From positions 6,120,658-6,184,657 of the forward strand of contig NC_081394.1 of the NCBI RefSeq assembly GCF_030684315.1: 64,000 bases of DNA. Direction: 5' to 3'. Shown one piece after another: positions 11,557-57,434 of the stretch. The position numbers and the translations under genes are program-made. Within the stretch, counting starts at the first letter, position 1; the number at the start of each line of letters is the position of its first letter. This DNA is from Stegostoma tigrinum (lineage: Eukaryota). Under the pieces are notes generated by a model that worked only from the letters and a program-made list of their open reading frames with translations, was not told the DNA's origin and searched no databases.

Positions 11557-11781
11557 AAGATAACAAAGTGTGGAGCTGGATGAACACAGCAGGCCACGCA
11601 GCATCTCAGGAGCACAAAAGCTGATGTTTCAGGCCTAGACCCTTCATCCTCTCAGATGAAGGGTCTAGGCCCGAAACGTCAGCTTTTGAGCTCCTGAGAT
11701 GCTGCTTGGCCTGCTGTGTTCATCCAGCTTCACACTGTGTTATCTTGGATTCTCCAGCATCTGCAGTTCCCATTATCACTC
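11557..11781. mobile_element. Fold-back PLE-terminus mini-element
   Basis: Two inverted termini meeting at the HHR; TSD AACAGCAAATAA at 11545-11556 and 11782-11793. Confidence 0.9.
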
Positions 11782-11889
11782 AACAGCAAATAAGACTTCA
11801 TTTATGTGCGTGCACACACACACTTTACTTTCAAAGAGATCTTCAATTATGCTTGGCTATTTTTCCTTTCACACAATCCCTTGTCTACT

Positions 11890-12440
11890 TCTGAATGACT
11901 AACTAGCATCAATTCCAAGGAGGCTGGCGTATAAAAGTTAATAATCTTGCCAAAACTGCATAGGGCTATGGTGAGACCACACCTGGAGTACTCTGTACAG
12001 ATTTGGTTTCCATACTTAGAAAGGTGTGATGGAACACACAAGACAGATTCCTGGAATGAGCAGGTGGTCTTATGAGGAGATACTAAGTTGACTGTCCCTG
12101 TTATTCTCTGGAGTTTTGAAGAACGGGAGACGATGTCATTAAAACATATAAAATTCTTAAAGGTTTGATACAGTGAACTCTAAGAGGGTCCTTCCCCCTA
12201 ACTGGCCCAGCTGAAGAATCTAGAACTAGTTTGGGGAGGAAGTAGCATTTGGGTGCTGGGCACTTTAGACCAAGATCAGGAGAAACTTCTTCACTCAGAG
12301 GGTGGTGAATCTTCTCCACTATAGACCGCTATTGATTCTCAGTTGTTGAGTGGATTTAACACTGAGATCAATCAACTTTTGGCCAAAATAATCCAGAGAC
12401 GCAGCAGAAACGTGGCATTCCGGTCAAAGAGCTGAGAAGC
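11890..12440 (+). mobile_element. CR1 LINE 3' portion, decayed
   Basis: atggtgagaccacacctggagtac (MVRPHLEY), ttcttcactcagagggtggtgaat (FFTQRVVN). Confidence 0.8.
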
Positions 12441-12552
12441 ACATTCAAGGGGTCCTTGTTCTGGTTTTTATAAAGATGGTGAACAGCCTGTGAAGTTCGA
12501 CGTAGCCAGATGGAAGAATCACGACTGGCTTCAAGACATATTTAGAAAGAAA

Positions 12553-12558
12553 TTTATT
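12553..12558 (-). terminator. Polyadenylation signal of MRPL50
   Basis: AATAAA on minus strand about 150 nt after the stop codon. Confidence 0.65.
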
Positions 12559-12709
12559 CAATACTTTAGGGTCCACAGATAGAATAAGGGCATGTAACTA
12601 TCCCTTCCAAGTGCAATGGGGTCTGACAGATGTCCATTCTTGTCTCATGAGGGAAGGAAGGACATTGAGTGCCATCTTCACAGAACACAGACTCCATGCA
12701 CTCCTCCTC

Positions 12710-27352: not shown

Positions 27353-28399
27353 GCCAACTGGTGATTGTCTCTGTTGTAGCATCATTTTAGAATGCATGTT
27401 TCATGAATCCACTTGAGTGACTCCGAATCGGCTATTTCAGTTTCATGGACATGGATGTACAGGGAATATGATGTTGAGTAGTACAGGAGTGAACATCGTG
27501 TTTTTCCTCTCTCCGTTACATTATCAACTTTGGAATTCACTGTTGACTGGTATGCTGGGCTCTCTGTAGAGGCAGAGCCAAACTGTTTCCTAACTGAGGA
27601 AATTGTCTTTACAGATAACATTTGGTCAGCATGATTTCCTGAGTTTGTCTTGATCACCTGAGGTGATTGAAGAGGAAAGGCAAAACTGCTCATGTCTTTT
27701 GCTTTAATAACTTCCACCAGAAGATTGCGCGGATGCATGGTGTGGTGAGTTGAAGATGGTGGGGAGAAATGTTTTGCAAGAATGGTCACACCATCATAGT
27801 GTAAATGAAGCTTGACCAACCAAAATTATTTCTATATATTTGGGCGAAAGATCAGCCCATGTCGTTATTTGGGAGAAACCAACTGGTATTCATGCAACCA
27901 GTTACAGCCAGCAACAAAGAGACCTTGAGGTGCTGGCTAATATTTCATTGAAAATAATTTACAGGTAGACAGGGTGGTGAAGAAGGCATCTTGTTTATGT
28001 GCCTTTATTGATCAGTGCATTGAATACAGAAGTCGGGAGGTCATGTTGCAGCTGTATACAACTTGGATAGAGATAATGGGAACTGCAGATGCTGGAGAAT
28101 CCGAGATAACAAAATGTGGAGCTGGATGAACATAGCAGGCCAAGCAGCATCTTCGGAGCACTAAGATGCTGCTTGGCCTGCTGTATTCATCCAGCTCCAC
28201 ATTTTGTTTTGAGAAGATTTGTAGCTCAGGTTGAGGTTCTGGATGTGAGTTTGCTCGCTGAGCTGGAAGGTTAGTTTTCAGACGTTTCGTCACCATTCTA
28301 GGTAACATCCGACGAAGAGCCTCCGACGAAGCGCTGGTGTTATGTCCTGCTTTCTATTTATCTGGTTATGTTTCCTTGGGTTGGTGATGTCATTTCCTG

Positions 28400-30802
28400 T
28401 TCTTTTTCTCAGGGGATGGTAGATTGGCTCCAAATCAATGTGTTTGTTGATGGAGTTCCGGTTGGAATGCCATGCTTCTAGGAATTCTCATGTGTGTCTC
28501 TGTTTGGCTTGACCTAGGATGGATGTGTTGTCCCAATCAAAGTGGTGTCCTTCCTCATCTGTGTGTAAGGATACGAGTGATAGTGGGTCATGTCGTTTTG
28601 TGGCTAGTTGATGTTCATGTATCCTGGTGGCTAGCTTTCTGCCAGTTTGTCCAATGTAGTGTTTGTCACAGTTCTTGCAAGGTATTTTGTAGATGACGTT
28701 CGTTTTACTTGTTGTCTGTATAGGGTCTTTTAAGTTCATTAGCTGCTGTTTTAGTGTGTTGGTGGGTTTGTGGGCTACCCTGATGCCAAGAGGCCCGAGT
28801 AGTCTGGCAGTCATTGTGGAAATGTCTTTGATGTAGGGGAGAGTGGTTATGGTTTCTGAGCCCGTTTTGTCTGTTTGTTTGGGTTTATTGCTGAGAAATC
28901 GGCGGACTGTGTTCATAGGGTACCCATTCTTTTTGAATACGCTGTATAGGTGATTTTCCTCTGCTCTGCGTAGTTCCTCTGTGCTGCAGTGTGTGGTGGC
29001 TCGTTGGAATAATGTTCTAATGCAGCTTCGTTTGTGGGTGTTGGGATGGTTGCTCCTGTAGTTCAGTATTTGGTCCGTATGTGTTGCTTTTCCTGTAGAC
29101 GCCGGTTTGAAGTTCCCCATTGGCTGTTCGCTCTACTGTGGCATCTAGGAATGGCAGTTTGCTGTTGTTTTCTTCCTCTTTTGTGAATGTTATGCCAGTA
29201 AGGGTATTATTGATGGTTTTGAAGGTTTCCTCTAATTTGTTTTGTTTAGTGATGACAAAGGTGTCATCCACATAGCGGACCCAAAGTTTGGGTTGGATGA
29301 TTGGCAGAGCTGTTTGTTTGAGTCTCTAAGAACCCTGATATCAGAGATCCCATGGGTGTACCGTTGGTTTGTCTGTAGGTTTTGTTATTGAAAGTGAAGT
29401 GGGTGGTGAGGCATAGGTCCACTAGCTTGATGATGTTGTCCTTGCTGATGGGGTTGGTGCTGTCTGGTGTATGTGTCTTCGGTTCTTCTAATAGTGTAGT
29501 CAGTGTTTCTTTGGCCAGGTTGATGTTGCTGGATGTGAACAGGGCTGTTACGTCAAAGGAGACCATTATTTAATCCTCTTCTATCTTGGTGTCTTTGATG
29601 GTGTTCAGGAATTCTTGGGTGGAGTGAATGGAGTGGTGGGAGTCTTCTACTAGGTGTTTTAGTCTTTGGTGTAGTTCCTTGGCTAATCTGTCGGTTGGTG
29701 TTCCAGGTAGCGACACTGTGGGCCTGAGAGGGGCTCCTGGTTTGTGAATTTTTGGTAGTCCGTAGAAGCGTGGTGTGTTGGATCCATCTGGTTTCATTTT
29801 TTGGAAGTCTCTCTTGTTTAATTCTCCAGATTTTTGAAGTTTTTTGAGTAAGGCTGTGATTCGGTTCTCTCGTTGTGGGGTCGGGTCTATCGCCACCTGT
29901 TGGTAAGTATCGGTATCTGCAAGCAGTGCATTCGCTTTCTCAACGTCGTCTGTTCGGTTTGAGATGACTGCCAAGCGTCCTTTGTCTGCAGGTCGGGTAA
30001 CGATGTTTTTATCTTTCTTGAGTCCTTTTAGGGCTTTCCTTTCTTGTGTGTTGAGTGTGTTTTCTTCCTTTTTCCTGCTTAATGTTGGTGCGACTGTCTG
30101 TCTGATGGTTTGCTGGGTTTCTTCTGAGAGTTTGTTGTCTTTCAGTGTTGCTTCTAACGCTGCTAAGAAATCTTTCTTGTCCACATCCTGGAAGTTGTAA
30201 TTTAACCCTCTTACTAAGACGGCTTTTTCAGTGTCTGTTAATGGTCGGTCAGATAAGTTTTTTATCCATGCTTCTATGCTGTCTGTGTTGTTATTTTGTG
30301 TGAGTTTGTCTAGTTTATTCTGCAGGTCTAGTTTTTTTGTTTTTTGTGTTTGCCGTTGCCTGATGTCTATGGCTCGTTGTACTGTGTCTGTCCATTCATG
30401 GTCTGTCGCGTTAGTGAGTAAAGTTTTTTGGCGCGAAATTTCCCGGTTATATTTACGGAGTCTGTTGTGGGCGTCATTGATCATTTCTCTGAGCATTCTG
30501 CGGCCGTTTTGCTCTGCTGTGCTTTTGGCTAGCGGGGTGTTAAGGGGAGGTTTGTATTTGAGACATTTTGGTAGTACCTGTTTCCTTAGGCATTCATGCA
30601 GGAAGTACAGCTGTTTGCGGGTGGCACTCTGTCGGATGGCACTGGTTTCCCATCTTCGGGCCAGTTTTAGCGTATTGCACCCATAGGTGCGAGCGAGTTT
30701 TGAGAAGATTTGTAGCTCAGGTTGAGGTTCTGGATGTGAGATTGCTCACTGAGCTGGAAGGTTAGTTTTCAGACGTTTCGTCACCATTCTAGGTAACATC
30801 AT
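28400..30802 (-). pseudogene. Poseidon-like RT-GIY-YIG ORF with a few stops and frameshifts
   Basis: LARRWE..FLHECL..VLP; PADKG; PRFYGLPKIHKPGAPLRP; MVSFDVTALFT; GTPMGS; YVDDTF; LPFLD; NVIYKIPCKNCDKHYIGQTGR. Confidence 0.92.
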
Positions 30803-30808
30803 CAGTGA
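30769..30808 (-). ncRNA. Minimal type I hammerhead ribozyme in the 5' pseudo-LTR
   Basis: UCA-CUGAUGA-U-GUUACC UAGAAU GGUGAC-GAAAC-GUC-UGA: 3-bp stem I, 6-bp stem II, ACGU palindrome; predicted cleavage after 30772. Confidence 0.85.
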
Positions 30809-33519
30809 GCCTTTGTCATCACTAAACAAAACAAATTAGAGGAAACCTTCAAGACCATCAATAATACCCTTTACTGGCATAACATTCACAAAAGAGGAGG
30901 AAAACAACAGCAAACTGCCATTCCTAGATGTCACGGTCGAGCGAACAGCCAATGGGGAACTTCAAACCAGCGTCTACAGGAAAACAACACATACGGACCA
31001 AATACTGAACTACAGGAGCAACCATCCCAACACCCACAAACGAAGCTGCATTAGAACATTATTCCAACGAGCCACCACACACTGCAGCACAAAGGAACTA
31101 CGCAGAGCAGAGGAAAATCACCTATACAGCGTATTCAAAAAGAATGGGTACCCTATGAACACAGTCCGCCGATTTCTCAGCAATAAACCCAAACAAACAG
31201 ACAAAACGGGCTCAGAAACCATAAGCACTCTCCCCTACATCAAAGTCATTTCCGAAATGACTGCCAGACTACTCGGACCCCTTGGCATCAGGGTAACCCA
31301 CAAACCCACCAACACACTAAAACAGCAGCTAATGAACTTAAAAGACCCTATACAGACAACAAGCAAAACGAACGTCATCTACAAAATACCTTGCAAGAAC
31401 TGTGACAAACACTACATTGGACAAACTGGCAGAAAGCTAGCCACCAGGATACATGAACATCACTAGCCACAAAACGACATGACCCACTATCACTCGTATC
31501 CTTACACACAGATGAGGAAGGACACCACTTTGATTGGGACATCACATCCATCCTAGGACAAGCCAAACAGAGACACACACGAGAATTCCTAGAAGCATGG
31601 TATTCCAACCGGAACTCCATCAACAAACACATTGATTTGGAGCCCATCTACCACCCTCTGAGAAAAAGAACAGGAAATGACATCACCAACGCAGGAAATG
31701 GCATCACCAACCCAAGGAAACCTAACCAGATAAATAGAGAGCGGGACATAACACCAGCGCTTCACCAGAGGCTCACTGATGTTGTTACCTAGAATGGTGA
31801 CGAAACATCTGAAAACTAACCTTCCAGCTCAGCGAGCAAACTCACATCCACCACATTTTGTTATCTAGGACATTGGATAGTCCACTTTTGGAATAATGCA
31901 ATCAATTCAGACCTATTTGCAGGAGGAAAAATGTTATTAAATTTGAAAGGGTGCAGAAAAGACGTGCACAGACATTGTCAACATTGGTCGAATGAGCGAT
32001 AGAAAGAAGCTAAATAGGCCGGGACTATTTTCCCCTGAAGCATCAGAAGCCGACAGGTGACTGTTGGGGAAGCTTACAAAATCATGAGTGGTGTGGATAC
32101 AGTGAAGAGACAGGTCTTTTCCTCCGGGCGAGTTATCCAAAACGAGAGGGTATAGGCCTAAGGTGAGTTGGGAAAGATTTAAAAGACACCTAAGGGGCAA
32201 CTTCTCCACACAGTTGCGTGCATGGAATGAGCGGTCAGAGGAAGTGGCGGAGGTGGGTACAATTACAACATTTACGATGGGTATGTGAATAGGAAGGGCT
32301 TAGAAGAATATGGGCCAGATGTTGGCAAATGGGACTATACTACTTTAAGATATCTTGTCAGCTTGGACGAGTTGGACAGAATGGTCTGTTTCCATGTTAT
32401 GCGTCTCAATGACTCCACGAGATCATAACTGGCCTTATTTCGTCATTATTTGCATCCAGCAACAGTCCTGCTTAATAACTGGAACAAGGTTCCAAGGCAG
32501 GCTTTCAATTCTGATTACTGCATATACCAGGAGGCTGGGAGATTTCATCACATGAGTTTGTATCTCAAAAGAATGGTTCCCTAGTATAATCAGATATATC
32601 AGTATAGATCAGACATATAACGGCAGTTAGATACCCACAATCCTTTGCGGTTCGGAAACCTCTCTATTCACCATATCATTTTAATACAGTCCTCTGCAGA
32701 ATAAATTCTGCCGCAGTGTTAACTGGGCCGAGTAACTGGCAACTTTACATTGGGGAATAGGATTTTCACATCTTTGTTCACCATTTGGCCCTCTCGGCCT
32801 ATTCTACCATTCACTGAGGTAATGCTGTTGTGTTCTGAAGAAATCTTTAGTCTCAAAATGTTACCATTGTTTCTCTATCTATAGAAGCTGCCAAATTTGT
32901 TGAGTTCCTCCTTTGATTTTATTTCAGATCTACAGCAACTCCAGCATTTTGCTTTCATATGGCTAACTGGCTGTTCTGTCAACTCCACTTTCCTGCCTGT
33001 GTCCCCTAACTCTCAACTTCATTGTCAATCAAAAATCTACCCAACTTGCCCTCAAATAATTTAATGACACAGCTTCCATTGCTTTCTGGGAAAGAAAGCT
33101 CTACAGACCAACAGTTCTATGAGAGAAAACAAATTATTCTCATCTGCAACTTAAAATGTACATCTCTCATCCTTAAACCTTGTCACTGGTTCTAGATTCC
33201 CACAAGAGAAGACATCTGTCCATGGTCCATAAAATCAAATGCCCCTCAGGATCTTACATGTTTCAGTAAAATCACCCCTCAGTCTGCAAAATCTGCATGT
33301 GCATAGGCCCAACCTTTTCACCCTTTAACCTTTGGCTTAGCACCTATTGGAGACAGGCGGCAGAAAGGACAGAATTCCATTCCACAGAAAGAGAAGGCAG
33401 AAGAGGTACATAGTTGAGGTAATCAGAAAGAATTTGATGGGGTAAGCATAGAGAAGGTGTTTCCAAGTGAGGGATGTAGCACAAGGGCATTAGGACACTA
33501 GAGTGTTCTTACAAATGAA

Positions 33520-34339: not shown

Positions 34340-36095
34340 ATGTCTAACAAAGTGTTGAGCTGGAGAAACACAGCAGGCCAGCAGCTTCGGAGAAATAGGA
34401 ACACTGACCCTTCCGGTCGAGACCCATCTTCACGATGGGAATGGGGAGGGGAGTTTAGAAAGAAATAGGGAGAGGAGGGGAAGGGCTGGGGAAGGTACGT
34501 GGGATGGTGATAGATGAGAGCAGGTAGGCAGTGGTGGGAATTGGTCAGTGAGGTGGGAGGAGCAGACAAGCGGGCGAGAAGATGGATAGGATATATCAGA
34601 TCACGGCGGTGGGGATGAGAGGACTGGTTGGTCACTGGATAAGGCCGGGGGTGGGGGAGAATTTGAAACTGGTAAAGTCCACATTTACGCCATTGGGCTG
34701 TAGCATCCTGAGGCGGAGTATGAAGTAAGATAAAAATGTGTAGAGCTGGATGAACACAGCAGGCCAAGCAACATCAGAGGAGCAAGAAGGCTGATGTTTC
34801 GGGCCTAGACTCTTTTCATTTCTGAGGAAGAGTCTAGGCCTGAAACATCAGCCTTCTTGCTCCTCTGATGCTGCTTGGCCTGCTGTGTTCATCCAGCTCT
34901 ACACCTGATTATCTCAGGTTCTCCAGCATCTGCAGTTCCTACTATTGCAGAGTATGTAGTGTTGCACCTCCAGTTTGCGGGTAGTGTCATTGTGGCACTG
35001 GAGGAGGGCCCAGGATGGGCATGTCTCCCAAGGAGTGGGAGGGGATGGTAAAGTTTGGCTGTCGTTGTTTTTAGCATACAGAGTGCAGATGCTCTACCAA
35101 ATGGTCTATGAGTCTCCGCTTGGTCTCACTGATGTACAGGAGGCCCCATGGGGTGCAATGGATACAGTAGGCCAAGTTGACAGATGTGCAGGTGAACCCA
35201 TATCTGATGTCAAAGCTATGTTTTTTTGCCATGATTAGAGGAAAGGTGTGAAGTGTAGCACTTTCTGCGGGTGCAGGGAAAGGTGCTGATAGTGGTGGGG
35301 TTAGTGGGGAGTGTGGAGTGGACAAATGAGTCATGGAGAGAGTGGTCCCGACGAAAGGCAGATATGGGTGGGTAGTAAAATATTTTTTGTGTGGAAATGG
35401 ATTGTAGGCGGCGGAAGTGGCGGAGAATGATATGCTGATCGAGGAGGCTGGTGGGGTGTTATGTGAGGACAAGGAGGATACTGTCTTTATTTTTGTGTTT
35501 TTTTGGGGGCAAGATGAAGTGAGGGCAGAGGCTTTGGAAATGCAAGAGATGCATTTGATGGCATTTTCAATCACCGGAGGGAGGAAGTTACGGTCCTTGA
35601 CAAAGGAGGACATCTGGGATGTGCGGGAGTGGAACACCCCATCTTGGCAGTGATGAAGGCTTATATTAGGGAGTAGGGATCACAGGAAGGTGAGTGAGAG
35701 GAGGTCTAGTCTAGCAGTTATGGGAGTCGCTGAGCTTGAAATAGATGTCGGTCATATCAGAGATAGAACCAGATTTTTCCAGGAAGGAGAGGTGGATACC
35801 CAAGAATTTGAGGCTTGGATGAAAGGCGTTAGTAAAGTTGATGAACAGTTCAAGCTCCTCATGAGGTAACACCAATACAGTCACCAATATAGTAGAGGAA
35901 GAGGTGAGGGATAGTGCCAGTGTTACAGCAGAAAGGGAATGTCCCACGTATCCTACAAAGAGGCAGACATAAATAGGGCCCACGGGGGTGACCATGGCCA
36001 CCCCCTTAGACTGTAGTAAGTGGGAGGAGTTGAAGTAGAAGTTGTGAAGGCTAGGGACAAGATCAGTTAAGCAGATGATACAAGGGGAATGTTTG
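34340..36095 (-). mobile_element. Older Neptune-like PLE, with a younger fold-back mini-element inserted at about 34727-34945
   Basis: QSKGVAMVTPVGPIYVCLFVGY; FTCTSVNLAYCIHC..LLYISETKRRL; insert flanked by gc(g/a)gagtatg(a/t)agt. Confidence 0.85.
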
Positions 36096-39048: not shown

Positions 39049-39132
39049 AAGAGAAACAGGGATGGTGTGTTAGGGATGTGTGCAGCCATTATGGCCGAAT
39101 AATAATGAAGGAAAAATGATGTTGCTCAACGT

Positions 39133-39325
39133 TGAGATAGCAAGAACAGCAGATGCTGGAGTCAGAGACAACACAGGGTGGAGCTGGAGGAACACAGCTG
39201 GCCAGGCAGCATCAGAGAAGCAGGAAAGTTGAAGTTTCTGAAGAAAGATCCCAAACCAAAATGTCAATTTCCCTGCTCCTCTGATGTTGCCTGACCTGCT
39301 GCTTTCCTCCAGCTCCACACTGTGT
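39133..39325. mobile_element. Old fold-back PLE-terminus mini-element
   Basis: Diverged inverted termini. Confidence 0.75.
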
Positions 39326-39986: not shown

Positions 39987-40235
39987 GATAAAATGTGAGG
40001 CTGGATGAACACAGCAGGCCAAGCAGCATCTCAGGAGCACAAAAGCTGACGTTTCGGGCCTAGACCCTTCATCAGAGAGGGGGATGGGAAGAGGGAACTG
40101 GAATAAATAGGGAGAGAGGGGGAGGCGGACCGAAGATGGAGAGTAAAGAAGATAGGTGGAGAGAGTATAGGTGGGGAGGTAGGGAGGGGATAGGTCAGTC
40201 CAGGGAAGACGGACAGGTCAAGGAGGTGGGATGAG
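39987..40235 (-). mobile_element. Young single-arm PLE terminus with intact HHR (40046-40077)
   Basis: Near-identical to 6772-7015; TSD gactac(t/c)tcaggacaa. Confidence 0.9.
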
Positions 40236-40676
40236 GACTACCTCAGGACAATGTGGGTAAGTTTAGTTTGAGCAAAAAGGGTGAATAACACAGTCACTCG
40301 GACTTTTAAAACAACAGGAAGTATAATGGTAAAATGAAAAGAAAGCAGCTGGTTAATGTGTGTGCAGGAGTGTTTAACCACGTCAAGAATTATGAAGGAA
40401 GTTAAGAAGAAGGAAAGCTCAGGAGATATTATTTATGGCGATGTTAGAATTCAAAAAGAAGCCATAAAAATTAACATAAGGACACTTTACTTGATGCTTG
40501 TTGCATTCCAGATTCCAAAACAGCACAAATGAGTTTGATTTAGTAGACATTATGAAGATCTGGTTGCAGGATGGTAATGTTTGGGAATTAAATATCCAGT
40601 GCTATCAGACTATCGGAAGGACGAGCAGGAAGATAAGGGAGGTGGTGTTACTCTGGTATTTTAGGATGACATCAGG

Positions 40677-41178: not shown

Positions 41179-41179
41179 G

Positions 41180-44547: not shown

Positions 44548-45914
44548 ATAAAATGCACAGTAAGAATCAGTGAGTCTAGAAACTGGATGTTTATTGGCGC
44601 ATTAAGACATCAGAATGCAAAATGTACACTTTGCTTAAAAATATGACCAGGAGATAAGAATCTCCTCATTTTGAGGTCTGACTCCTGGCTGCCTGGTCAC
44701 AGCCAATGCTCCAATGAGTACAGAATGACTTGGTGACAGAACCTAGTTCCTGAGCAGTTACTTTGGTAAGTAAGACATTGAGTGGAAAAAGCAGTGGAAG
44801 AGTCATTTTGGGAGGGACAGGCAAGAAATTGGAGTTCAGTTCAGAATCGGATCAGCCATGACCTTCCTGATGAATGCATCAGGTTAAAGGGGCTGAATGG
44901 CCTGCTCCTGCTCCCTATGTCTGATTAAAGAGAAATGGAAAGTGCTGTAGACATTCAGAAGTCTTGGAGAAAATTAAACTCATAAAGTGTTTGGCCAAAA
45001 TTGACTCCATTTTAAAAAGGCTGTTAATCATCTCCATGGGGTTGAGACGGTTGATATCAGGACTGGGTTGGAGCTGGGAGCTGATTGTGTGTGTGTGTGT
45101 CTCTTCCATTAATAGACAATCCTTCACCACATTCTAAAAAACAGTCGCATTAGCGTGTGTGAGAATGTTCATGGAGTACTGAGGGGGACAGTGACAGATT
45201 ACTGGAGGGTATTAATAGACTGGGGAAATGAATGCACAGGTTAATTTCTGGGTCATGAGTATTGGGTTGTAAAGAGAGACATGTTAGGAATGAAACATGA
45301 ACAACAGGTTTAGTTGGGCTGAATGGTCTGTTGCACTGCATTAGATTCACACTAAATCTTTTATGTTTGGAGTCTCTCATCATATCCTTGGTACGTCTCA
45401 TCAAAGACATTGTCTTCAAGGTGATTGCCTGTGTTCTGAGTCCATTATTAAAGCTGTGTTCCACACAGCACTCTTTTATGTTTGGGATATTGAACTGTTT
45501 TATAAAATGGATTGGGAGTCTGTAATTACTAAACCATTTTCAAATGATAAGACTTAAGAATTACTGCCTTAGACCATGAGGATCCAGGAAGGTGAAGCTA
45601 ATTAGTGTTGGAGAGAACAGTATTAGTTCCCTGGTCTTTTCATCCATTGTCCTGCCCTATAAATCAGCACTGAATGTTTCTACATTGGCTTACCTTTTTG
45701 ACACTATGTTGAGTAGAAAACTGGCTTCAGTCTTATGTCCAGGATTTCCTTCCATCTGTTGTGATACTTTGTAGAGTTCCATGTGTGTCCTCTAGTTTAT
45801 TTGCACGACTGTTGCTGTACACAGATACCTAGTCTGGTGGTCGTACACACCACCCAGAGCTAAATACTGGTATTTCTCACCCTCCTCGCTTTCTCCCCCC
45901 CCCCCCCCCCCAAA

Positions 45915-46439
45915 CTTGGTCTGGCACAAAATGTGAAAGTCCACACTCCAGATGTTGTGACAGTGTGGGAAGGTTCTTCTGCACAAATTCCATGTCATTA
46001 CAGTTATCCTTCACATCTGGCAAACCAACCACGAGTCGGAATCTGGTTTTATCAAAAGCGATTGGAAACATGGTCAGTAGCTTTCCACTCCAAGAATCAC
46101 AGCAATGAGATGCCTCAATTTCGCCATCGGACCCAGCTGCCTGGAGACCTAAAGGATGGAGACTGTTTGCTGAGTATAAACAACATCACACAGGAAGACA
46201 AAAGCTGACGTTTCGGGCCTAGACCCTTCATCTGATGAAGCGTCAAGGCCCGAGACGTCAGCTTTTGTGCTCCTGAGATGCTGCTGGGCCTGCTGTTGTT
46301 CATCCAGCCTCACATTTTTTTATCTTGGATTCTCCAGTATCTGCAGTTCCCATTATCACTCACACAGGAAGATGCAGAATAAAATTTGATAATGCAAATA
46401 GTTACAGCTACTTTACTGTAACCCATCTTCGCATTTCTG
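45915..46439 (+). pseudogene. Siglec-like V-set Ig exon, inactivated
   Basis: Paralogue of 58875-59240 (AQIPCHYSYPSHLANQ.RVGIWF); acceptor AG lost, PLE insertion 46199-46359, 16-nt deletion of the GSYYFR codons; donor TCTG|gtaagt retained. Confidence 0.92.
46199..46359. mobile_element. Fold-back PLE-terminus mini-element inside the Siglec-like exon
   Basis: TSD TCACACAGGAAGA at 46186-46198 and 46360-46372. Confidence 0.92.
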
Positions 46440-46737
46440 GTAAGTGCTGTGCTATAATTATTCAGTAATTCACATCCAGCGCTCAGTGGGAAATAACACA
46501 TACTGTGCAATGTGACATTAACACAAAACATGGCCTGTTACAACAGCGTCTGATTCTCAATAACCTGGTGATAGTTTCCAGTTCAGTTCTCGAGCAACCT
46601 CTATTTCTTACTTTAATATCAGCGATTAAATGTATTGACTGTGTCCACCAATGTTATCAGGTTATCCACACGCATCATCCTCTCTAATCCTGTTTAAGGA
46701 TCTTACAAAGCGACAAAAACAATAGACTTGCATTTCA

Positions 46738-46867
46738 GTGATAATGGGAACTGCAGATGCTGGAGAATCCAAGAGAACAAAGTGTGAGGCTGGATGAACA
46801 CAGCAGGCCAAGCAGCATCTCAGGAGCACAAAAGCTGATGTTTCTGGCCTAGACCCTTCATCAGAAA
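46738..46867 (-). mobile_element. Single-arm 130-bp PLE terminus beginning just upstream of the HHR core
   Basis: TSD AGACTTGCATTTCA at 46724-46737 and 46868-46881. Confidence 0.9.
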
Positions 46868-47100
46868 AGACTTGCATTTCAATAGTGTCCTTCACCACTC
46901 CAGAGGATCCCAAAGAATCTCACAGAAATGAAACAATTCTTGATGTTGTCACTGATGTGACACAGCATCCAATATGAGCTCAGCAAGCTCCCACAAACAT
47001 CAGTGATATCGATGGCTCTCTGATCTCTGAGACATTGATGAAGCAGCTTTGCAGTAAATGTTACAGTGAAACATAACTTGAGTGGACATCCATAGTGAGA

Positions 47101-47289
47101 GATTGAAAGCGGGCAGTAAGGGATGAAGATTGAAAGTGGGCAGTAAGGGATGAAGATTGAAAGCGGGCAGTAAGGGATGAAGATTGAAAGTGGGCAGTAA
47201 GGGATGAAGATTGAAAGTGGGCAGTAAGGGATGAAGATTGAAAGCGGGCAGTAAGGGATGAAGATTGAAAGCGGGCAGTAAGGGATGAA
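47101..47289 (+). repeat. 27-bp tandem repeat x7 (gattgaaag[c/t]gggcagtaagggatgaa) fused to a PLE terminus (47290-47372)
   Basis: Seven units differing at one position; the last unit runs into gggtccaggcctgaaacgtcag. Confidence 0.95.
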
Positions 47290-47405
47290 GGGTCCAGGCC
47301 TGAAACGTCAGCCTTCCTGATCCTATGATGCTGCTTGGCCTGCTGTGTTCATCCAGCTCCACACCTTGTCTCATAAGTGATTAATGCTTTCTTTGTGTTT
47401 TCCAG

Positions 47406-47600
47406 ATAGCAGAGGGATGAGTCTGCATGCGTTCTTGATCCTGGGAATGTGAGTTGGGATATTCATTGCGGCTGTTGGCGTTTGTATCTGCAGGCAGCAA
47501 ACAGTTAAGAGAAGCTGAGAGGCTTTTTCAAGCTTTGTCAGTGCAACAGAGTCACATGTGCTGTTGAGTCAAGTTGAAATGAATCCTGATAATAGCACTG
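47406..47600 (+). pseudogene. Putative transmembrane exon of the Siglec-like pseudogene
   Basis: Acceptor tttgtgttttccag, phase 1 compatible with the V exon; DSRGMSLHAFLILGM*VGIFIAAVGVCICRQQTVKRS*EAF...; possible donor ACTG|gttagg. Confidence 0.6.
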
Positions 47601-47827
47601 GTTAGGATCATTTGAGATCAGTCATTACAGCACAGAAGTATACCATTCAGTCCATTGAGCCAGGCTGGCTCTCTCTTTAGAGCAACCCAGTCAGTCCCAT
47701 TTCCCCATTCTCTCTCTCTTTATTGTTCTGCAAATTTATTTCTCACAAGTGTCCATCCAATTTCCATTTTAAATTATTGAACATCTCCCTTTGCACCCCA
47801 CTTCATAGGCAGTGAGTTCTAGAAATG

Positions 47828-49530
47828 GGATATTGCTTCTTAGTGTATGGAGATACACCTCAAATGAGAGCTTCTCCTGTTCCTCTTCATCAAACTGAAA
47901 CTTCTTCCACGCCTTCTGCTCCTCACAGCTGCTGTGTGACTCCATTAAACCTAAGACTGACCATAGCCAACATGGTCAAATGGCCCTGAACAGAAACATG
48001 ACTTAGCTCGACTTTGTTATCAGAACTGAATATGCATTCTGACTGAGTGATAACAAAATGTGAAGCTAGATGAACACAGCAGGCCAAGCAGCATCCTAGG
48101 AGCACAAAAGCTGACATTTCGGGCCTAGACCCTTCATCAGAAAATAGTCAGCCTTCCTGCTCTTTAGATGCTGCTTGGCCTGCTGTGTTCATCCAGCTCC
48201 ACACTTTGTTATCTCGGTTTATCCAACATCTGTGGTTCCCATTATCTCTGATACATTCTGAATGATGCATCTTGCTCATGCAGTGAGGAATTCCAAGGAA
48301 CATGCCAGTTATGAACATTGTTACGTTGATTAACAGAATAGAATAAAATATTCAGGCTGGTCTGCAGATAAACATCAATTAAACTCTGCATTGATTCAAA
48401 CTTGTTGACTCAAAGATGGTCTCACATTTTCTCAGTTTTCCCACATTGTTTGAAATCTTGGATTAAATGTAGAATGAAAATTTTCAATGCAAACATGTCA
48501 CATTGTAGTTACAGCCTCCTGCCATTTGTAGTATGTTATGTTCATGCCTCGTTTCTCAGATACAGGAGGAACTATTCCATTTGACTACATTGCTCAGATG
48601 GGGGCTTCAGGGGAATTTTTGCACAGTGCTAAAGGTGTTCCTAAGATAATACACATTCAGTGCAGTGCTTCACTCACCCAGTACTGCCCTCTGACAAAGT
48701 GGCACACTCTCAGTCCAAACACTGCGATAGTACAGCACTCTCTCAGGAGTGAACCTTAGATAAAGTTTCATACTCCCTCTCTCCCTCTGAAATTTCCTCC
48801 AGCTCCTGCACCCCTCCCTATATGTGCAACCTCCTCTAGCCCTTATTCCTTCTCCCCATTGCTGTATTCTCCCCATCCCCCACATATAACCCTCCCTATC
48901 AGTGTGGCCATCTCTAGCCCGTACCCCTGTCACTATGTTTGTTACTTCCTCCAGACCAAACAATATTCTGAGGTCTTTTTGTTTTCTCTATTTCTGATGT
49001 TGACTATTCTTACTTTCTATTGCTCCCCCAATCCTGGCCATGTCTGGATCTTGAGCGCTGGAGCTCCCTCCCCAAACCTTACAGCCTTAGGAGGATCTCA
49101 GAGACTCTCACAGCAGTGACTCACAACAGCATTCAGAACAGAGTGTCCAGGCCTGTAACTTCCCTGTCTTCCCAGCACGGCAACCACAAGAAGGAAGTAG
49201 AAACGTTGACAGTTAAGCAGAACACAAACTGGTGCATATGTAAAAATCAGAAATTTACAGTATCCCTTTGTCGCTGACCTACAGAACAGTAAAAATTCAT
49301 TAAATCACAGATGGGCACAGCATAGAGAGAGGCCTTTCAGCCTATCCTGCCAGTTCTGGCTATCTGCTAGATCTAACCACTTGGTTCCAATTTTCCACTC
49401 ATTCACACTGTGCCCAAATGCCCTTTTGAAAGTTCCTGTTAAACCTGCTTCCAACTCCCGTTCAGAATGTGGGTTCCACATCAGAACAGCTCACTGTGCA
49501 CAATAAGCCTGAGCCTGCCTGCTCAGTCAC
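47828..49530 (+). repeat. Segmental duplication copy 2, carrying a fold-back PLE mini-element at about 48046-48250
   Basis: Colinear with 25262-26714; insert flanked by at(g/a)cattctga and absent from copy 1 at about 25454. Confidence 0.9.
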
Positions 49531-49759
49531 GGTCACTTCAAGACAAGGGAAGACGTGGAGAGTTATTTTCAGGCATTGGATTTAAGGTTGAAGTCGGAAA
49601 TTGCGATAGGGAAGCTGCAGCAAGGAAAAGTAGGCGGAAGAAGTGAGAGTGGTCTACAGCCACCATCAGTAATGTGAGACAATGCGTGCATGGGAAAATA
49701 CTGGCCTCTCACACAGTACAGTACAGGAACAGAACCTTTGGCCCACCAAATCTGTGCCA

Positions 49760-50340
49760 TAGAACATAGACCATTACAGCACAGTACAGGCCCTTTGGCC
49801 CTCGATGTTGTGCCGACCTGTCATACCGATCTCAAGCCCATCTAACCTACACTACTCCATGTACGTCCATATGCTTCTCCAATGACTACTTAAATGTACC
49901 TAAAGTTGGCGAATCTACTCCCGTTGCAGGCAAAGCGTTCCATTCCCTTACTACTCTCTGAGTAAGGAAACTACCGCTGACATCTGTCCTGTATCTTTCA
50001 CCCCTTAATTTAAAGCTATGCCCCCTCGTGCTCACCGTCACCATCCTAGGAAAAAGGCTCTCCCTATCCACCCTATCTAACCCTCTGATTATTTTATATG
50101 TCTCAATTAAGTCACCTCTCAACCTTCTTCTCTCTAACGAAAACAGCCTCAAGTCCCTCAGCCTTTCCTCGTAAGACCTTCCCTCCATACCAGGCAACAT
50201 CCTGGTAAATCTCCTCTGCACCCTTTCCAAAGCTTCCACATCCTTCTTATAATGCGGTGACCAGAACTGTGCGCAATACTCCAAGTGCGGCCGCACCAGA
50301 GTTTTATACAGCTGTAACATAAATTTGTGCCAATACAAGG
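49760..50340 (-). mobile_element. Young CR1/HER1 LINE 3' end
   Basis: MLQLYKTLVRPHLEYCAQFWSPHYKKDVEALERVQRRFTRMLPG...FLTQRVVREWNALP. Confidence 0.92.
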
Positions 50341-50535
50341 TACCTTTCTAAACTAAAAGGTTTTTGCCTCTCCATGGCCTATATTTCTCAATTCCCTGCC
50401 TATTCATGTGTCTGTAGAGATGCCTCTCCAACTTTGTTATTGTATCCGCCTCCACCTCCTCCGCTGGCAGTACTTTCCAGGCACATTCGACACTCTGTGT
50501 AAAAACCCTGCCACTCAAATATCCTTTACACTTTG

Positions 50536-50727
50536 AGATAGCTGGAACTGCAGATGCTGGATAATCCGAGATAACAAGGTGTAGAGCAGGATGAACACAG
50601 CAGGCCAAGCAGCATCAGAGGACCATATGACAATATGATGAAGGGCCTAGGCCTGAAACGTCAGCTTTCCAGCTCCTCTGATGGCGCTTGGCCTGCTGCG
50701 TGCATCCAGCTCTACACCGTGTTATCC
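50536..50727. mobile_element. Fold-back PLE-terminus mini-element inserted in an older CR1
   Basis: Inverted termini; flanked by atccttta(c/t)actt. Confidence 0.8.
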
Positions 50728-51515
50728 TTTATACTTACCCCATTTAACGTAAACTTCAATCTCCTCGTGATTGAATTTTCTAACCTGGGAAAACGACTGC
50801 GACTGTCTATTCCATGCGGAGGTCTCATTCTGTAAGATTCTATGAGGTTCTAACCCTCATCCTTCATCATTCAGGTGAAAACAAACCAAGTTTGTCCAAT
50901 CTCCTTTGTAATCCCTTTGAAACCAGTTAACATCCTGGTTAACCAGTTCTGTATGCTTTCCAAAGTTGCCATGTCTTTCTGGCGGTGTGGTGACCAGAAC
51001 AGGACTCAATAAAGGGACAGTGATACTCATGGGTGACTTCAATCAACATCAAAACTGGAAAAATCAGATTGACAATCGTAGCCTGGAGGGTGAGCTCACA
51101 GAATAATTTGAGATAAGTTCTGAGAGCAACACATTCTGGAACAGAGCAGGCGATACTCGATTTTGTGAAACAAGGCAAGCAAAGTGGATGACCTCAGAGT
51201 AATGACGTCCCTCAGCACAACTGGTGCCAAGATTGTGTCTAAGATTAGTTTTCTAAACTTAAATAGAGACAACAATGCGGCTGTGAAAGCTGAGATAGCT
51301 AAAATGAGTTTGTAGAAAAGGCTAGGGATATATGAATAGACATAGAGAGTGAAAGGCATTTAATGGGATATTTCAGAATATTCAGGCTCAGTACACTTCT
51401 CCTATGAACAATGATTTTAAAGGGAGATTCCACTCTTTATAGATAAATAATGGGGTTCAGGAAACATCAAACTTTTGGAAAAGCATGTCATTGAAAAATG
51501 GGCAGCAAGTGTTTC

Positions 51516-51669
51516 GAGATAACAAAGTGTGGAGCTGGATGAAGACTGCAGGCCAAGCAGCATCTCGGGAGCTTTTGTGCTCCTAAGATGCTGCTTGGCC
51601 TGCTGTGTTCATCCATCTCCACACTTTGTTATCTCGGATTGTCCAGCATCTGCAGTTCTCATTATCTCT
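51516..51669. mobile_element. Fold-back PLE-terminus mini-element lacking the HHR core
   Basis: Arms join at ...gggAGCttttgtg; flanked by agcaagt(g/a)t(t/c)tcga. Confidence 0.85.
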
Positions 51670-52082
51670 AGCAAGTATCTCGACATGTGGCTAAAAAGGA
51701 AAAGCTACCATCAGTTCAAGCAATAGCTCTGCATACAGAATATGCCCATGGTATCAAGATTGAGACAGTGCATACGAAGGGTCCAGTTGCAAACACACAG
51801 CTTCATTTCTTCCACACAGACAGCTGGATAAGGACACCCTTGTGCATGCTGATAGAAGAATTCCGTACCAAGCTGATTTCCAACAAATATAGATGTATTT
51901 TAATTAACATTCCCAGATCATCATTGTTATCGAGTTTGAATACACCAAAAATCCATAATCTTTTAAAATGCAGTAAACGTTAAAGAGATTCCAATTTGGA
52001 CACAAAGCCTGAGACTGTAAGACAATGCCCCTAAACTGCATTCATGGAGGATTGAATTAAAGTGACAGAACTCAGCAGGATT

Positions 52083-53990
52083 AAAGCAAAAACAAAAGTT
52101 GCTGGAAGAGCTCAGCAGGTTAGGCAGCATCTGTGAAGAAAGGATCAGAGTTAATGTTTCAGATCTGTTAACCCTTCCTCAGAACTGATGGTTGCTGGGA
52201 AACATCAATTTATATACAGAAAATAAGGAGGGGAATAAGGGCAGGAGTAAACGATAGGATAGAGCCTGAAGAGAGCGAAGAGCAGTTGGATAGACAAAGG
52301 AGTTGCTAACGATCAGCCTGGGAGGGTGAATAGTTGTTAATGGGGACTGATTGTGACTAACGATAGGTTGTGTGTGATGCTGGGCAATGTGATAACAAGG
52401 CCTAGTGTAGGGGATAGGGGTCTAGGACATTTAGTTTCGGCCCGGAAATTATGGAAATTAATATTGAGTCTGGAGGGCTGCAGGTTCTCCAAGCAGAAAA
52501 TGAGGTGTTGTTCTTCCAGCTTACATTGAGCTTCACTGGAACACTGCAGCAAGGCAGACACAGAGATGTTGGCTAGGGAACAGGGTGGTGTGTTAAAGTG
52601 GCGGGCAACAGGTAGCTCAGGGTCTTTTTTGTGAGCAGAATGTAGATGCTGTGCGAAGCAGTCACACAGTTTATGCTTTGTGTCCCCAGTGTAGGCGAGA
52701 TTGCATTGTGAGCAACGTATGTAAGAGACTAGATTCTGTCGAGTGCAGGTGAAGTAACAAGCTATGTTCGGGCTCTCGGATAGTGGGGAGCGAGAAGGTA
52801 AATGGGCAGGTCTTGCACCTTTGCTGGTTGCAGGAGGGAAGAGAAGAGGTGAGGGCAGCACTGTGGGAGATGTGTTGAATCGGTTGAGGTCTCTGTCAAA
52901 AATGGTGCTGGGGAGTCCTGAATTGAGGAAGAAGGTGAACATTTCGGACCCTCCATTGTCAAAATTGGTCTCATCTGAACATATGCGATGGAGATGGGGA
53001 AACTGACAGAATGGAATGGAAGCAGGGTGTGAGGATGTATAGTCCAGGTAGCTGTGGGAGTCGGTGAGTTTTTAGTGGATATTAATGGCCAGTCTATTCC
53101 CAGAAATGGAAACAGAGATGTCAAAGAAAAGAAGTGAGGAATTAGAGATAGAACAGGTGAAAGTGAGGACAGGGTAGAAATTGGAAGCAAACTCAACAAG
53201 GAATGTTCCACATAACCCATGAAGAGACAGACATAACTGGAGACCATCCAAGTATCCATGGCCACCCCTCTGAGGTGAAGAAAAAGAGAGGAGTTAAAAG
53301 AGAAGTTGTTGAGTGTGAAGATGAACTTTGCCAAACGGAGGAGGGTGGTGACTGGCGGAGATGGCTCAGGCCTTTCCTCCAGAAAGAAGCGGAGAGCCCT
53401 AAGACCGGCCTGGTGTTAAGGAATTGCACATCCATGGTGAAGAAGAGGTGGCTTGAAACTGCAAGCTGGAAGTTTTGAAACTGGCAGAAAGTGTCAGAAG
53501 AATCATGGATGTACATGGGCAGAGATTGGGAGAGAAAACTGAGTCAAGCTACGAAGAGATGAGTTCTGTGGGGCAGGAGTAGGTTGAAACAATGGGTCCC
53601 ATTTGTGGATTTTTGGAAGGAGGTTGAAGTGAGCTGCATGGGGCTGCAGGGCTATCAGCTTGGAAGCATCTTGGAGGGAGGTCACCAGATGAAAAGAGAT
53701 CAGTTACCATACTAAATACAATGGATTGATACATCATAGTGGGGTCATGGTCCAGGGGAATATAGGAGAAAGTATCTGAGAACTGTTGCTCAGCCTCTGC
53801 AGTGTAGAGGTCAGTACACTAGACTACAACAGCACCATTCTTATCAAGAGGCTTAATAGGAAAGTCAAGGTAAGATCTAAGTGCACAGAGTGCATTGAAT
53901 TCAGAGTGACATAGCTTGGATTTGGTGAGGCGGGGAGGAAGAGAAATTTGAGGTGACCAATATCACATGAACAACTCTCACTGAACAAAT
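52083..53990 (-). mobile_element. Decayed Neptune-like PLE (further subfamily)
   Basis: LLPKIHK; FTLNNFSFNSS..RGVAMDTW..SYVCLFMGYVE; NLVSYIRCSQCNLAYTGDTK..EEQHLIFCL. Confidence 0.85.
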
Positions 53991-55334
53991 CAGCTGCGGG
54001 TAAAAGGCCAGAGAGAGGGGTCCAGGTTGAGGGGGAGTGTTGGGCTCGGCAAAGCTTCTGTGGGATGGGGAGAGGACTTGTCTGAAGAAATGGACGCGAC
54101 ATGTTGTGTCAATTGGTCAGAATGTGGGTGACTATGATGCATTATAAAAGGCCAATAGTTAGATCAAAGTTTGTCTCGTAAACATCATGAGATCATGAAA
54201 GACCGGGGGTTGTGCATAAGGCTGGCCCATCATTGACCAGATTTGCACATGATTAATTTCATTGAGTGTGTATGTAATTAATTCATAATATAATTGCTCT
54301 GTAAATGCCAAAGTAGGTTGAAAACAAATATATTAACGTTTATGTCTTTCCTTTGTTCATTCAAGAAGTTTCTGACCCCCAGATATTTCTTCCCACTGGT
54401 GTAATTTCAATAAACTCTTTGATGCTGGAGGTGGAGTCTGGGTTTCAAGTGATTTATTTAGTCATTCTACCCCAAAAATATAAATCAGGAGGCGGAAGAC
54501 AAAGAGGAACTTTATGGAAATACATACAATCATGATGAAAGTGGCACTGAGTAAACTGATGGAGCTCTGGGCTGACAAATCACTGGAATCCAGTGGACTT
54601 CATCCCAGAGAATAACGGAGGTGGTGAAAGATGTAGTTGCTGGGTTGTTTTTAGTTTTACAGCATTTGTTGGACCCTGAGAAGGTTCCACCAGGTTTGAA
54701 AGGAGAAAATACAACCCATCTATTCAAAGGAGGGAAGCCAAAAATAGGAATCTCTAGTTCTGGGCAAACTGCTAACTTCTCACTTAACTAACTTCCCGAT
54801 GTCACCCACAATGACATATCGACAATTCTGAAGATACAGAGAGAGAGGGTGTTGCATAGGAAGAAGCTACTCAGCCCAAGCTGTATGTCTTGGTAATTAC
54901 TCTCCAGGCAAGCAGTTGGACCGATCAGGGTAAGTAACATAAAAATAGGAACTTAGTTTCTTTTCTTGTTGGTGTTCTAAGGACAGGTTCAAATAATTGA
55001 TGCCTTTGAAAGGATTGTATTTATTATTGAGATTTGTCCGTGTGGCTCAAGTCAGTCAAACAGACCATCTTTCTGGGTAAAGGGATGAGAGATATAGAGC
55101 CAGGGGTTTTGGAATGGCCTAAGGAGGTGAAAACGCTATAGAAATTCAAATTGTTCATCTTTTTACTTTGTTGAAGCCTTTTGACTCTCTACAGAGCACC
55201 AATCATTCTGCAGAGAATCAAAGAAGTCTGTGAGGACTTTGTCTAAAAGTCGCTCTGATCTCTCGAGAACAGTCAGATAAGGGGTGAGGCCTCATTAATT
55301 CCTTCCTCTTTCAGAGCTTCAGAGGGAAAAGTGA

Positions 55335-55398
55335 ATGAAATATCTGGGAGCTGGGGCTATGACTGGGAAATCTTACTTCCTGCTGTCACTTCTCCAAG
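55335..55398 (+). CDS. Signal-peptide exon of the intact Siglec-like gene
   Basis: (MKYLGAGA)MTGKSYFLLSLLQ then G|gtaatg phase 1; splices to 58875 giving MTGKSYFLLSLLQAGLAQ-NW; upstream acceptor ccttcctctttcag ends at 55314. Confidence 0.75.
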
Positions 55399-57200
55399 GT
55401 AATGCCATTGTCAGCTCGGTCCGATTTACGGTTCATAGACTTCTCTAAAGATCGTTCTTACTGAGCTGTAATTAGGAACCAATTCAGTAGTGAGCCAGTG
55501 TTCACACTCACAGTAAGTCCTGTTCACCCATCGCCCCTGTGCTCACTAACATACACTGACTCCCAGTCTGACAACAGTCATGAAGCAGCACAGAGATCTG
55601 TTTGTGTACATTGGAAATCTACAGAGATTACAGAGTTAGGGAATGAAGAGCAGACAGCATAGATGGGAAATAAATGATGCTTATCACAAAAACGAAAGTT
55701 TAGAAACCAATTCAAGTCAGTGAACAAGGACCTAATAATAAGAATGAGCCATGATAAAAACTGGGGGTTGATGTTTACTCTGAGGCTGCGACTCCAATTA
55801 CAATTTTCTGAAATTTGTGACTTTTGCTGATTTTTGTCAAAATTTCCCATGTAGACAACACACTTCTAGAACAAATATGCCTCTCAACATCACACTTTCT
55901 GTCCATTCTTACCATGTTAGAAACTTCAATAAAGGTGTGAGATAACTGACAGAGAGAAGTAAGCCGAATCAGGCGGTGCAGAGAGTGTCAAACATTCAAT
56001 TCATTTTCAATTCATTATCTTTACTGTTAGCACATGCAGGGCTCAGGCCAGAGGCACTTTGCTCCAGTGTTCCAAAGTGTCTGCTGCAGGAGGGTCAGTG
56101 TGGAGCTTGGGAACCAGTCGGTCTCTGAGGCTGCATCAGAATCAACAATATAACAACATTGCATTTGGACCGAAAATAACCCTTCAGACAATCAGGATCC
56201 AAAGAGAAGCCCTCAGCAGTGAAAATCTGAACTGATCCCTGACAGCAGGAAAGGTGTTAAGGGAAGGTCATGTCTGATCAACTCGGTTGATTTTTTTGAA
56301 GAGGTGACGAGGTGTGCAGATGGGGGGTAATGGTTTTGAAGTTGGATTCTTGAACGTCAGTGAGCTTTTGATAAGGTCCTGTATGGGACAGCTAAGGTCA
56401 AGGAAATGTGGCAAACTGGGTTCACAATCAGCTGAATTTCACAAAGCAGTGGGTGATCTTTGAGGGGTGTTTTCTCCACTGGATATCTATCTCCAGTGAG
56501 GTCCCACCGTGGTCAAGTGTAGAGATTATTGCTGTCAGTGCTTTGTACAAATAATGCACACCTGAATGCTGGAGGGTTGCTAAATACGTTTGTAGATGGC
56601 AGAAATGCTGGTGAGATTGAAGTAGTGAGGAGGATAGAGATGAGCTCATCAGCTGGGCTGATCAGTGCCAAATAGAGTTCAATCCCGAAAGATGTGAATT
56701 GGCCCACTGACCTTGGAGCTGTGAGCTGAAAATAACTTGTGCACTTTGGAAGAGCTTGTGGCAAGTGGAAAAAGAAGAAATAAAACAAACTTTTATTTGT
56801 CTTTAATACGAGGCCTGGAGTTTAATCACAGGCTGATTCTAGGTTAAAACGATTCCAACAGATACAGCGACCTCAGGAAGACCAGGACTTGGCCATTAAT
56901 GAGGTCAATGCCTGGGAATTGGTTCTGACAAATCTGGAATTGGCTCTGTATTCAAGCAGATGGCAAATGTTCAATGGAATTTGAAACCTCAGGAAATGAT
57001 GGTCAGTCTTTCAAGGTGGAACCAGGGCTGAAGTTTGTTTTTGAACTGTGTTTTATGGTAAGATGAGTTTGCTGCTGATGATACAGCAGGAAGATTTGAG
57101 AGCTATCTCCTAGCTTCCCACACTAACTTCCAGAAGCACAGAGAGTAGAAAACTGAGTCCGAAATATTGCTACATTTACCTGAGTGAACTGAAACGGTGA

Positions 57201-57434
57201 TCAGAGATAATGGGAACTGCAGATGCTGGAGAATCCAAGATAACAAAGTGTGGGGCTGGATGAACACAGCAGGCCAAGCAGCATCTTAGGAGCACAAAAG
57301 CTGATGTTTCGGGTCTAGACCCTTCATCAGAAAACAATTTTCTGATGAAGGGTCTAGGCCCAAAACATCAGCTTTTGTGCTCGTGAGATGCTGCTTGGCC
57401 TGCTGTGTTCATCCAGCTCCACACTTTGTTATCT
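57201..57434. mobile_element. Fold-back PLE-terminus mini-element
   Basis: TSD TGAACTGAAACGGTGA at 57185-57200 and 57435-57450; arms meet at catcagaaaa-caa-ttttctgatga. Confidence 0.92.

Follow-up and report, generated by a model that had tools for sequence, protein, structure and literature searches.

Endonuclease-encoding Penelope-like elements (EN+ PLEs), as characterized in the main texts of PMC8557442 and PMC2377424, are tandem units with pseudo-long terminal repeats (pLTRs) that leave head-to-head inverted, 5'-truncated copies, carry an optional 30-40-bp tail on one side, generate target-site duplications (TSDs), and encode a reverse transcriptase (RT) with a C-terminal GIY-YIG domain. 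We now report a shark element, from Stegostoma tigrinum, that has all of these features and whose linker fits the Neptune pattern CX2-5CxxC; its copies crowd a 64-kb stretch of contig NC_081394.1 (positions 6,120,658 to 6,184,657, assembly GCF_030684315.1), which as a whole we call the window. Unlike the copies described in those main texts, where we met no such account, most of the shark two-arm insertions (52/84) consist of only the last 60-135 nt, and their 5' ends fall in two sharp peaks. Judging from the genomic sequence, these fold-back stubs are probably dead-end run-off products of a Neptune-like PLE terminus, formed by two-nick priming and head-to-head joining.

Two other PLE systems come close. 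The rotifer (Adineta vaga) elements Pen2, Pen2a, and Pen3a have inverted pLTRs, palindromic junctions, a tail on one side, solo pLTRs, an 8-10-bp TSD and, as in the shark, TATA and initiator-like motifs in the pLTR; they differ in having few copies, in coming without end statistics, and in being explained by self-priming on an antisense template (main text of PMC3846280). The protein of Poseidon from Anolis carolinensis cuts and extends both strands in vitro and starts internally at two sites bounding the tail, as the shark copies would require, although integration and head-to-head joining were not reconstituted in the work described (PMC11167929). The minimal type I hammerheads of metazoan PLEs share with the shark motif the core, the extra nucleotide before G10.1-C11.1, the palindromic 15.2-16.2, and the lack of loop 3; the shark helix II is shorter (4 bp, 7-8 reported), as is helix I in its young subfamily (2 bp, 4-5 reported). 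The main text of that study (PMC4209133) gives no evidence of cleavage in vivo, and notes Schistosoma hammerhead pairs on opposite strands 100-700 bp apart. Non-LTR retrozymes are likewise non-coding, with a type I hammerhead and an origin in PLE pLTRs, but they form head-to-tail tandems with a ribozyme per unit and circular RNA, whereas the shark stubs are head-to-head, one-off pairs (PMC7229834; bioRxiv 10.64898/2026.07.22.740005, as far as these describe them). What PLE hammerheads do, and how inverted PLE ends arise, are described as open questions in the main texts of PMC8557442, PMC11167929, and PMC3846280. Literature searches over main texts turned up no account of the shark stubs or of end peaks at a PLE ribozyme in any genome, and nothing relevant in PMC12910113; the family could already have an entry in Repbase or Dfam.

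The parent of the stubs is represented by the natural tandem copy L101, which served as the reference for alignment and numbering, no consensus being employed; +1 is the C of CUGAUGA and -1 the base before it. L101 is a 3,699-bp head-to-tail unit with a single 1,102-aa open reading frame (ORF), whose matches to RVT_1 (E 3e-5) and GIY-YIG (E 4e-3) are weak, both below the Pfam cut-offs; a Cx4Cx2C linker is visible between RT and endonuclease in its translation. The 3.2-Gb genome holds many parent copies that are 99-100% identical at the protein level (127/127 scored), and the parent has partial-tandem pLTR and inverted copies. It fits a very young, abundant Neptune-like EN+ PLE, provisionally assignable by linker description to Neptune, whose linker is zinc-finger-like, or to Nematis, which shares it (PMC8557442). 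In the window, a long inverted copy at 6772-9421 ends in the same terminus as the stubs and displays its anatomy (fold-backs are listed here and below without a strand):

6772..9421, no strand: long head-to-head copy of the young element; arms ~1.3 kb, 99% alike; 14-bp TSD; architecture as in the stubs
8134..9069, plus strand: C-terminal ORF piece with thumb, Cx4Cx2C linker, and GIY-YIG (Pfam PF01541, E 8e-4, below the curated cut-off)
9260..9266, plus strand: TATA-like box at -34..-28, kept in 93/105 long arms; putative in function
9290..9290, plus strand: position -4, the putative transcription start
9294..9321, plus strand: core of the minimal type I hammerhead, +1..+28, with the cut predicted to follow 9321
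9386..9421, plus strand: optional tail of ~36 nt, between the 3' end peaks at +92-94 and +127-133

The parental ATG lies ~40 nt past the tail, so that an RNA begun in the upstream repeat has the ribozyme and tail at both ends. Separately, the N-terminal part of the ORF in two copies (L032:4477-7722 and L031) contains a variable Pro/Thr/Asp-rich tandem repeat, the copy number of which varies among young copies. A fold-back unit in L031 was considered as a fixed head of the full element and rejected, since a TSD of its own flanks the unit and the nearby element copy, 1.8 kb away, was truncated separately.

Searching the window with the terminus gave 33 arms at ~19 loci, in keeping with the roughly 20 copies counted by the initial annotation, and the fold-back arms at the nine places it named were also recovered independently of this search. 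A script detected TSDs of 11-17 bp at eight of these nine fold-backs and at the single arm at 46738, against 0-6 bp when the same search was shifted by 300 bp, which upholds the claim that short copies are flanked by 11-16 bp TSDs of their own. At the ninth (51516) the script found 7 bp, while 14 bp with 2 mismatches can be discerned by eye; the same script search detected no TSD at three further fold-backs (20204, 28069, and 39144).

11557..11781, no strand: fold-back stub; minus arm +3..+94 without tail, plus arm ~-4..+128 with tail; 12-bp TSD
14608..14784, no strand: older fold-back stub; arms ~-3..+85 and +21..+129; 11-bp TSD with 1 mismatch
19690..19900, no strand: fold-back stub; arms +8..+93 and -4..+129; 15-bp TSD
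20204..20381, no strand: three-arm stub; TSD not found
28069..28208, no strand: fold-back stub with its turn downstream of the core; TSD not found
34727..34949, no strand: older fold-back stub; arms +7..+94 and ~-5..+124; 11-bp TSD with 1 mismatch
39144..39319, no strand: decayed fold-back stub; TSD not found
46199..46359, no strand: fold-back stub, minus arm very short; 13-bp TSD
46738..46864, minus strand: single tailed arm starting at -3/-4; TSD 14-17 bp (17 bp with 1 mismatch by script)
48047..48253, no strand: fold-back stub; arms -4..+92 and +26..+129; 12-bp TSD with 1 mismatch
50534..50722, no strand: older fold-back stub with filler at its centre; 14-bp TSD with 1 mismatch
51516..51669, no strand: fold-back stub; plus arm from +29, the predicted cleavage site, with microhomology
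57201..57434, no strand: fold-back stub; both arms from -4, 3-nt spacer; 16-bp TSD

A random sample of the genome, made up of 27 blocks taken at round-number positions on large contigs and totalling 1.34 Mb, yielded 288 arms (215 per Mb). One edge-censored arm and the window's 33 arms were left out, and the distribution of ends was drawn from the 206 arms with 85% or more identity to the young element, 81 arms below 85% being omitted because their upstream alignment is unreliable. Among the head-to-head pairs in this sample, 52/82 have a TSD of at least 10 bp compared to 0/82 shifted controls. Short pairs number 39 per Mb; scaling the 52 found in 1.34 Mb up to the 3.2-Gb genome gives ~120,000. 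The 3' ends of the sampled arms peak at +92-94 and +127-133, matching the optional 30-40-bp tail known from EN+ PLEs. Among the 5' ends, 90 lie upstream of -60, 1 at -60..-15, 2 at -13, 42 at -8..-1, and 71 at +1..+60; with a density further upstream of ~8 starts per 100 nt, the interval -8..-1 is enriched ~65-fold. Older subfamilies align upstream of this point too (their starts scored as -1 are really at ~-4), so the pile-up at -4 is no alignment artefact. Genome-wide counts of ends, obtained as exact sequence-pattern matches and read, like all ends here, from genomic insertions, give a second peak at +29. The initial annotation had thus rightly placed the 5' ends non-randomly near the ribozyme, and its suggested plot of truncation points around the hammerhead does reveal peaks, but it had missed that there are two sharp ends, one at -4 with an extra G and one at the cleavage site. 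Its statement that in several copies the arms meet close to the hammerhead core agrees with the 42 starts at -8..-1; not all arms do so, 71 starting at +1..+60.

At the -4 end, 9,447 copies genome-wide have a base other than C at -5, compared to 76,149 with the templated C and to 892 in a control at -11. In hand counts, the first 100 matches listed comprise 67 G, 26 T, and 7 A at -5, and 24 G, 55 T, and 21 A at the control. Long copies have 386 purines at -5 and 383 at -7, so the G does not stem from base changes at -5 in these long copies. Among 30 loci fetched, 25 have G: 7 are clearly untemplated, 2 are long copies, and 16 are ambiguous. The TATA-like box stands 30 nt before -4 in the 93/105 long arms that keep it, and a distant hammerhead-bearing PLE family has TATAAA and TCAGTT at equal spacing. 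Motifs such as TCAGTT read as initiators. An extra G is described as a mark of capped full-length L1 insertions (PMC11702581), and the main text of PMC2377424 places the Drosophila virilis Penelope transcription start inside the upstream pLTR, although that promoter is TATA-less. Position -4 may therefore be a capped transcription start.

Several observations weigh against a single capped start. None of 29 ORF-start copies begins at -4 (one begins at +2, six further downstream, and 22 continue upstream), which implies that most long copies were templated by RNAs exceeding one unit and that a single -4 start does not explain them. In the older subfamily (1,662 copies) G does not dominate before -4 (A 56, G 26, T 18 among 100 matches listed), the A fitting joining through a terminal AT. 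A further 4,343 copies start at -5 without G bias (29 G and 29 A among 100 matches listed), and for many of the G's the end of the partner arm offers a complementary base from which they could derive. Three other ideas about this end were rejected. Retrovirus-like transfer of a capped run-off cDNA to the 3' pLTR, rebuilding the promoter, predicts a surplus of G at -5 that is absent (the 386 and 383 purines above), and is discarded as a common route; a splice acceptor at -4 is contradicted by the parental CC, rather than AG, before -4; and the idea that ORF-start copies stop more often within the pLTR is unsupported (7/29 compared to ~4.6 expected from the upstream rate).

The motif next to this end has the conserved core of a minimal type I hammerhead, with the extra nucleotide before G10.1-C11.1 and the palindromic 15.2-16.2, and its cut is predicted after +28; the initial annotation's identification of a PLE terminus with a minimal hammerhead is borne out, although an Rfam search returned no match to a hammerhead or other ribozyme family, only sub-threshold microRNA-like hits. 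Helix I of the young subfamily has 2 bp, kept through C-G, U-G, and U-A, with the outer two positions mostly unpaired; in the distant family it has 4 bp. Counting starts genome-wide by two non-matching upstream bases gives 3,494 at +29, followed by 699 at +30, 577 at +31, and 834 at +32. Among the first 100 matches listed at +29, 60 are palindromic joins and 40 are other, which would still leave ~1,400. Perfect joins at equal 4-nt palindromes number 595 at +29, compared to 123 at +13, 39 at +24, and 21 at +56 (CpG decay being permitted in two of these controls). We read 20 of the +29 loci, picked from the first 29 hits minus 8 paired palindromic hits: 9 are clean starts at +29, several arose by microhomology, and one is a small deletion in a long copy. 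One start abuts its TSD (L236), and two others (L247 and L248) are joined to ORF-start sequence, pointing to the 5' end of the full element RNA as template. These ends may come from hammerhead self-cleavage in vivo.

This reading of +29 has its own difficulties. The predicted fold of the monomer is an inactive hairpin over +1..+30, and with a helix I of only 2 bp the predicted cleavage would need a dimer and probably protein help; the hammerhead of Anolis Poseidon, near its ORF start, is described as cleaved with protein assistance (PMC11167929). The peak is too small to be visible in the random sample, where 4/206 arms start at +28..+30, and part of it is a collection of microhomology joins. 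Moreover, the same Anolis study differs from the shark case in that RNA reads did not end at the cleavage site, and it reports insertion in vitro without a need for cleavage.

The composition of the pairs bears on how they form. The 84 head-to-head pairs comprise 52 short-short, 25 long-long, and 7 mixed pairs, compared to ~38 mixed pairs expected if arms were independent. Exactly one arm is tailed in 50/52 short and 20/25 long pairs. In a comparison of 19 young long pairs, arms at the same locus differ at 9/162 shared-variant sites compared, as against 32% between loci. Both arms of a pair would thus share a single source, unless gene conversion or assembly smoothing produced the common haplotype, a possibility that tells against this interpretation. 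Arm lengths in long pairs gave no usable correlation (rho 0.23, p 0.27), and this line was dropped.

The likely course, we propose, is that cDNA synthesis on a single element RNA is primed from both nicked target strands, at the two tail sites close to the RNA's 5' end. Each cDNA would run off the end of that RNA, be it the capped start predicted at -4 or the ribozyme cut predicted at +29, and head-to-head joining of the two would give a dead-end hairpin stub. Trimming and short-homology joining would cause the shoulder at +1..+60. Lacking the TATA-like box, stubs would not be transcribed again. In the stronger form of this proposal, to which we give somewhat better than even chances, the genome is a base-resolution fossil record of PLE RNA, recording a capped -4 start, an in vivo hammerhead cut at +29, and paired run-off cDNAs from both nicks on the 5' pLTR of one RNA.

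Other origins for the short copies are all unlikely. The one that survives best is that the many truncated genomic copies give rise, from -4 in their 3' ends, to short RNAs that each insert a single time in trans: the box and -4 site are retained by tens of thousands of long copies, D. virilis 3' pLTRs are described as able to drive transcription (PMC2377424), and ORF-start copies that do not end at -4 would be accounted for. Yet about half of the long copies have no tail while nearly every short pair has a tailed arm, L247 and L248 bear ORF-start sequence, and the Anolis protein is reported to require RNA downstream of its start sites (PMC11167929), and we think this origin improbable. We rate lower the possibility that one cDNA folds back and copies itself, or that antisense RNA primes itself, as proposed for the rotifer palindromes (PMC3846280). 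Such self-copying would give arms with a shared haplotype, and short snap-back copies do occur at junctions; against it, the tailed arm reaches further 5' in 18 pairs and the untailed arm in 24, with 8 ties, and each 3' end also occurs alone, in single-arm insertions with TSDs. The pair data agree better with cutting and extension of both strands from two sites, as described for Anolis (PMC11167929), than with antisense self-priming.

Lower again stands the initial annotation's suggestion that 5' ends are set where reverse transcriptase halts at the folded ribozyme. The monomer hairpin spans the right region, starts are elevated over +1..+60, and a blunt join of two cDNAs stopped at +31 yields the same palindrome as a join at +29. 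Stalling predicts an end at +31, the hairpin base, however, which has the fewest starts of the four positions counted, while +29 has the most; the main peak, at -4, is reached only after the entire structure has been copied, being 5' of the motif, and shuffled sequences fold as stably as the motif does (z 0.4).

The initial annotation had also raised a non-autonomous, retrozyme-like family that propagates itself. Every one of the 52 short-short pairs has a distinct centre, so that the junctions are independent. The 84 two-arm pairs are head-to-head rather than tandem, with only scattered two-unit joins. In a tree built from 84 alignment columns, few enough that small lineages could be missed, with each locus represented by one arm (151 arms in all, 76 of them short), the short/long label changes 43 times, compared to 50.7 in free shuffles (p 0.014) and 45.4 in shuffles stratified by age (p 0.25). 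The proposed check for an own lineage therefore turns up slight clustering that vanishes under age stratification. The largest all-short clade holds 5 of 76 rows with weak support, and none of 15 sites tested is a fixed diagnostic separating short copies. Short and long copies are intermixed on the tree; the stubs are a by-product class of a known kind of element, and a family of their own is largely refuted. That a hammerhead-plus-tail RNA multiplies in trans is thus the least probable of these explanations, for all that short pairs are numerous and over-represented in older strata, animal retrozymes are described as derived from PLE pLTRs (bioRxiv 10.64898/2026.07.22.740005), and a few short tandem joins exist (L171 and L242), given the distinct centres, the lack of a clade beyond age structure, the missing upstream box, and the head-to-head arrangement.

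Possible seeds of retrozyme-like tandems are the short head-to-tail joins at L242, L245, L171, and G000:C1 near 20040900, in which a start at -4, -7, or +29 is linked to sequence of the tail or the ORF start. Miniature inverted-repeat transposable elements (MITEs) resemble the stubs in being short and numerous, with inverted ends and a TSD. The stubs differ in having neither a uniform size nor a shared centre, and in having arms that are a retroelement terminus; the claim that MITE-looking palindromes arise here by a retro mechanism stands. Repeat annotators should be warned that such palindromes resemble MITEs or, as the Rfam hits suggest, microRNA hairpins, yet are retro by-products. The value of the finding lies in the two sharp ends: if the proposal is true, they would be genomic evidence that the minimal PLE hammerhead cleaves in the germ line, rare evidence of a hammerhead working in a living animal, and head-to-head PLE ends would arise by two-nick priming. 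The short pairs pinpoint, in a form open to testing, where the RNA would start, where it would be cut, and where the two cDNAs would be primed.

The remaining arms of this terminus in the window are single:

7..88, plus strand: arm cut off at the window edge
18956..19090, minus strand: old single arm with upstream sequence
34345..34484, minus strand: old single arm with upstream sequence
39988..40236, minus strand: young single arm, -161..+88
47284..47363, plus strand: single short arm, +3..+82

Other PLE families are also present. A second one (window 28488-31466) has a GIY-YIG match, no obvious Zn linker, inverted pieces, and its own hammerhead core at 30805 (minus) with a long helix II. The distant hammerhead-bearing family, at 52182 (minus) and 52337-53415, has a canonical TATA box, TCAGTT, and a 4-bp helix I; its short copies in the random sample often start at -3, and at one locus elsewhere (L165) a -4 stub is inserted into its hammerhead region. 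An inverted repeat at 90-257 (69-nt arms, 84%) shows no match to the terminus studied here and is possibly a stub of another family. Among host sequences, the exon-like ORFs at 12710-13153 and 14125-14502 (minus) presumably belong to a mitochondrial ribosomal protein gene (L50-like), and the stub at 14608 lies directly upstream of them. A putative V-set immunoglobulin exon resembling Siglec/MAG lies at 58853-59248 (minus).

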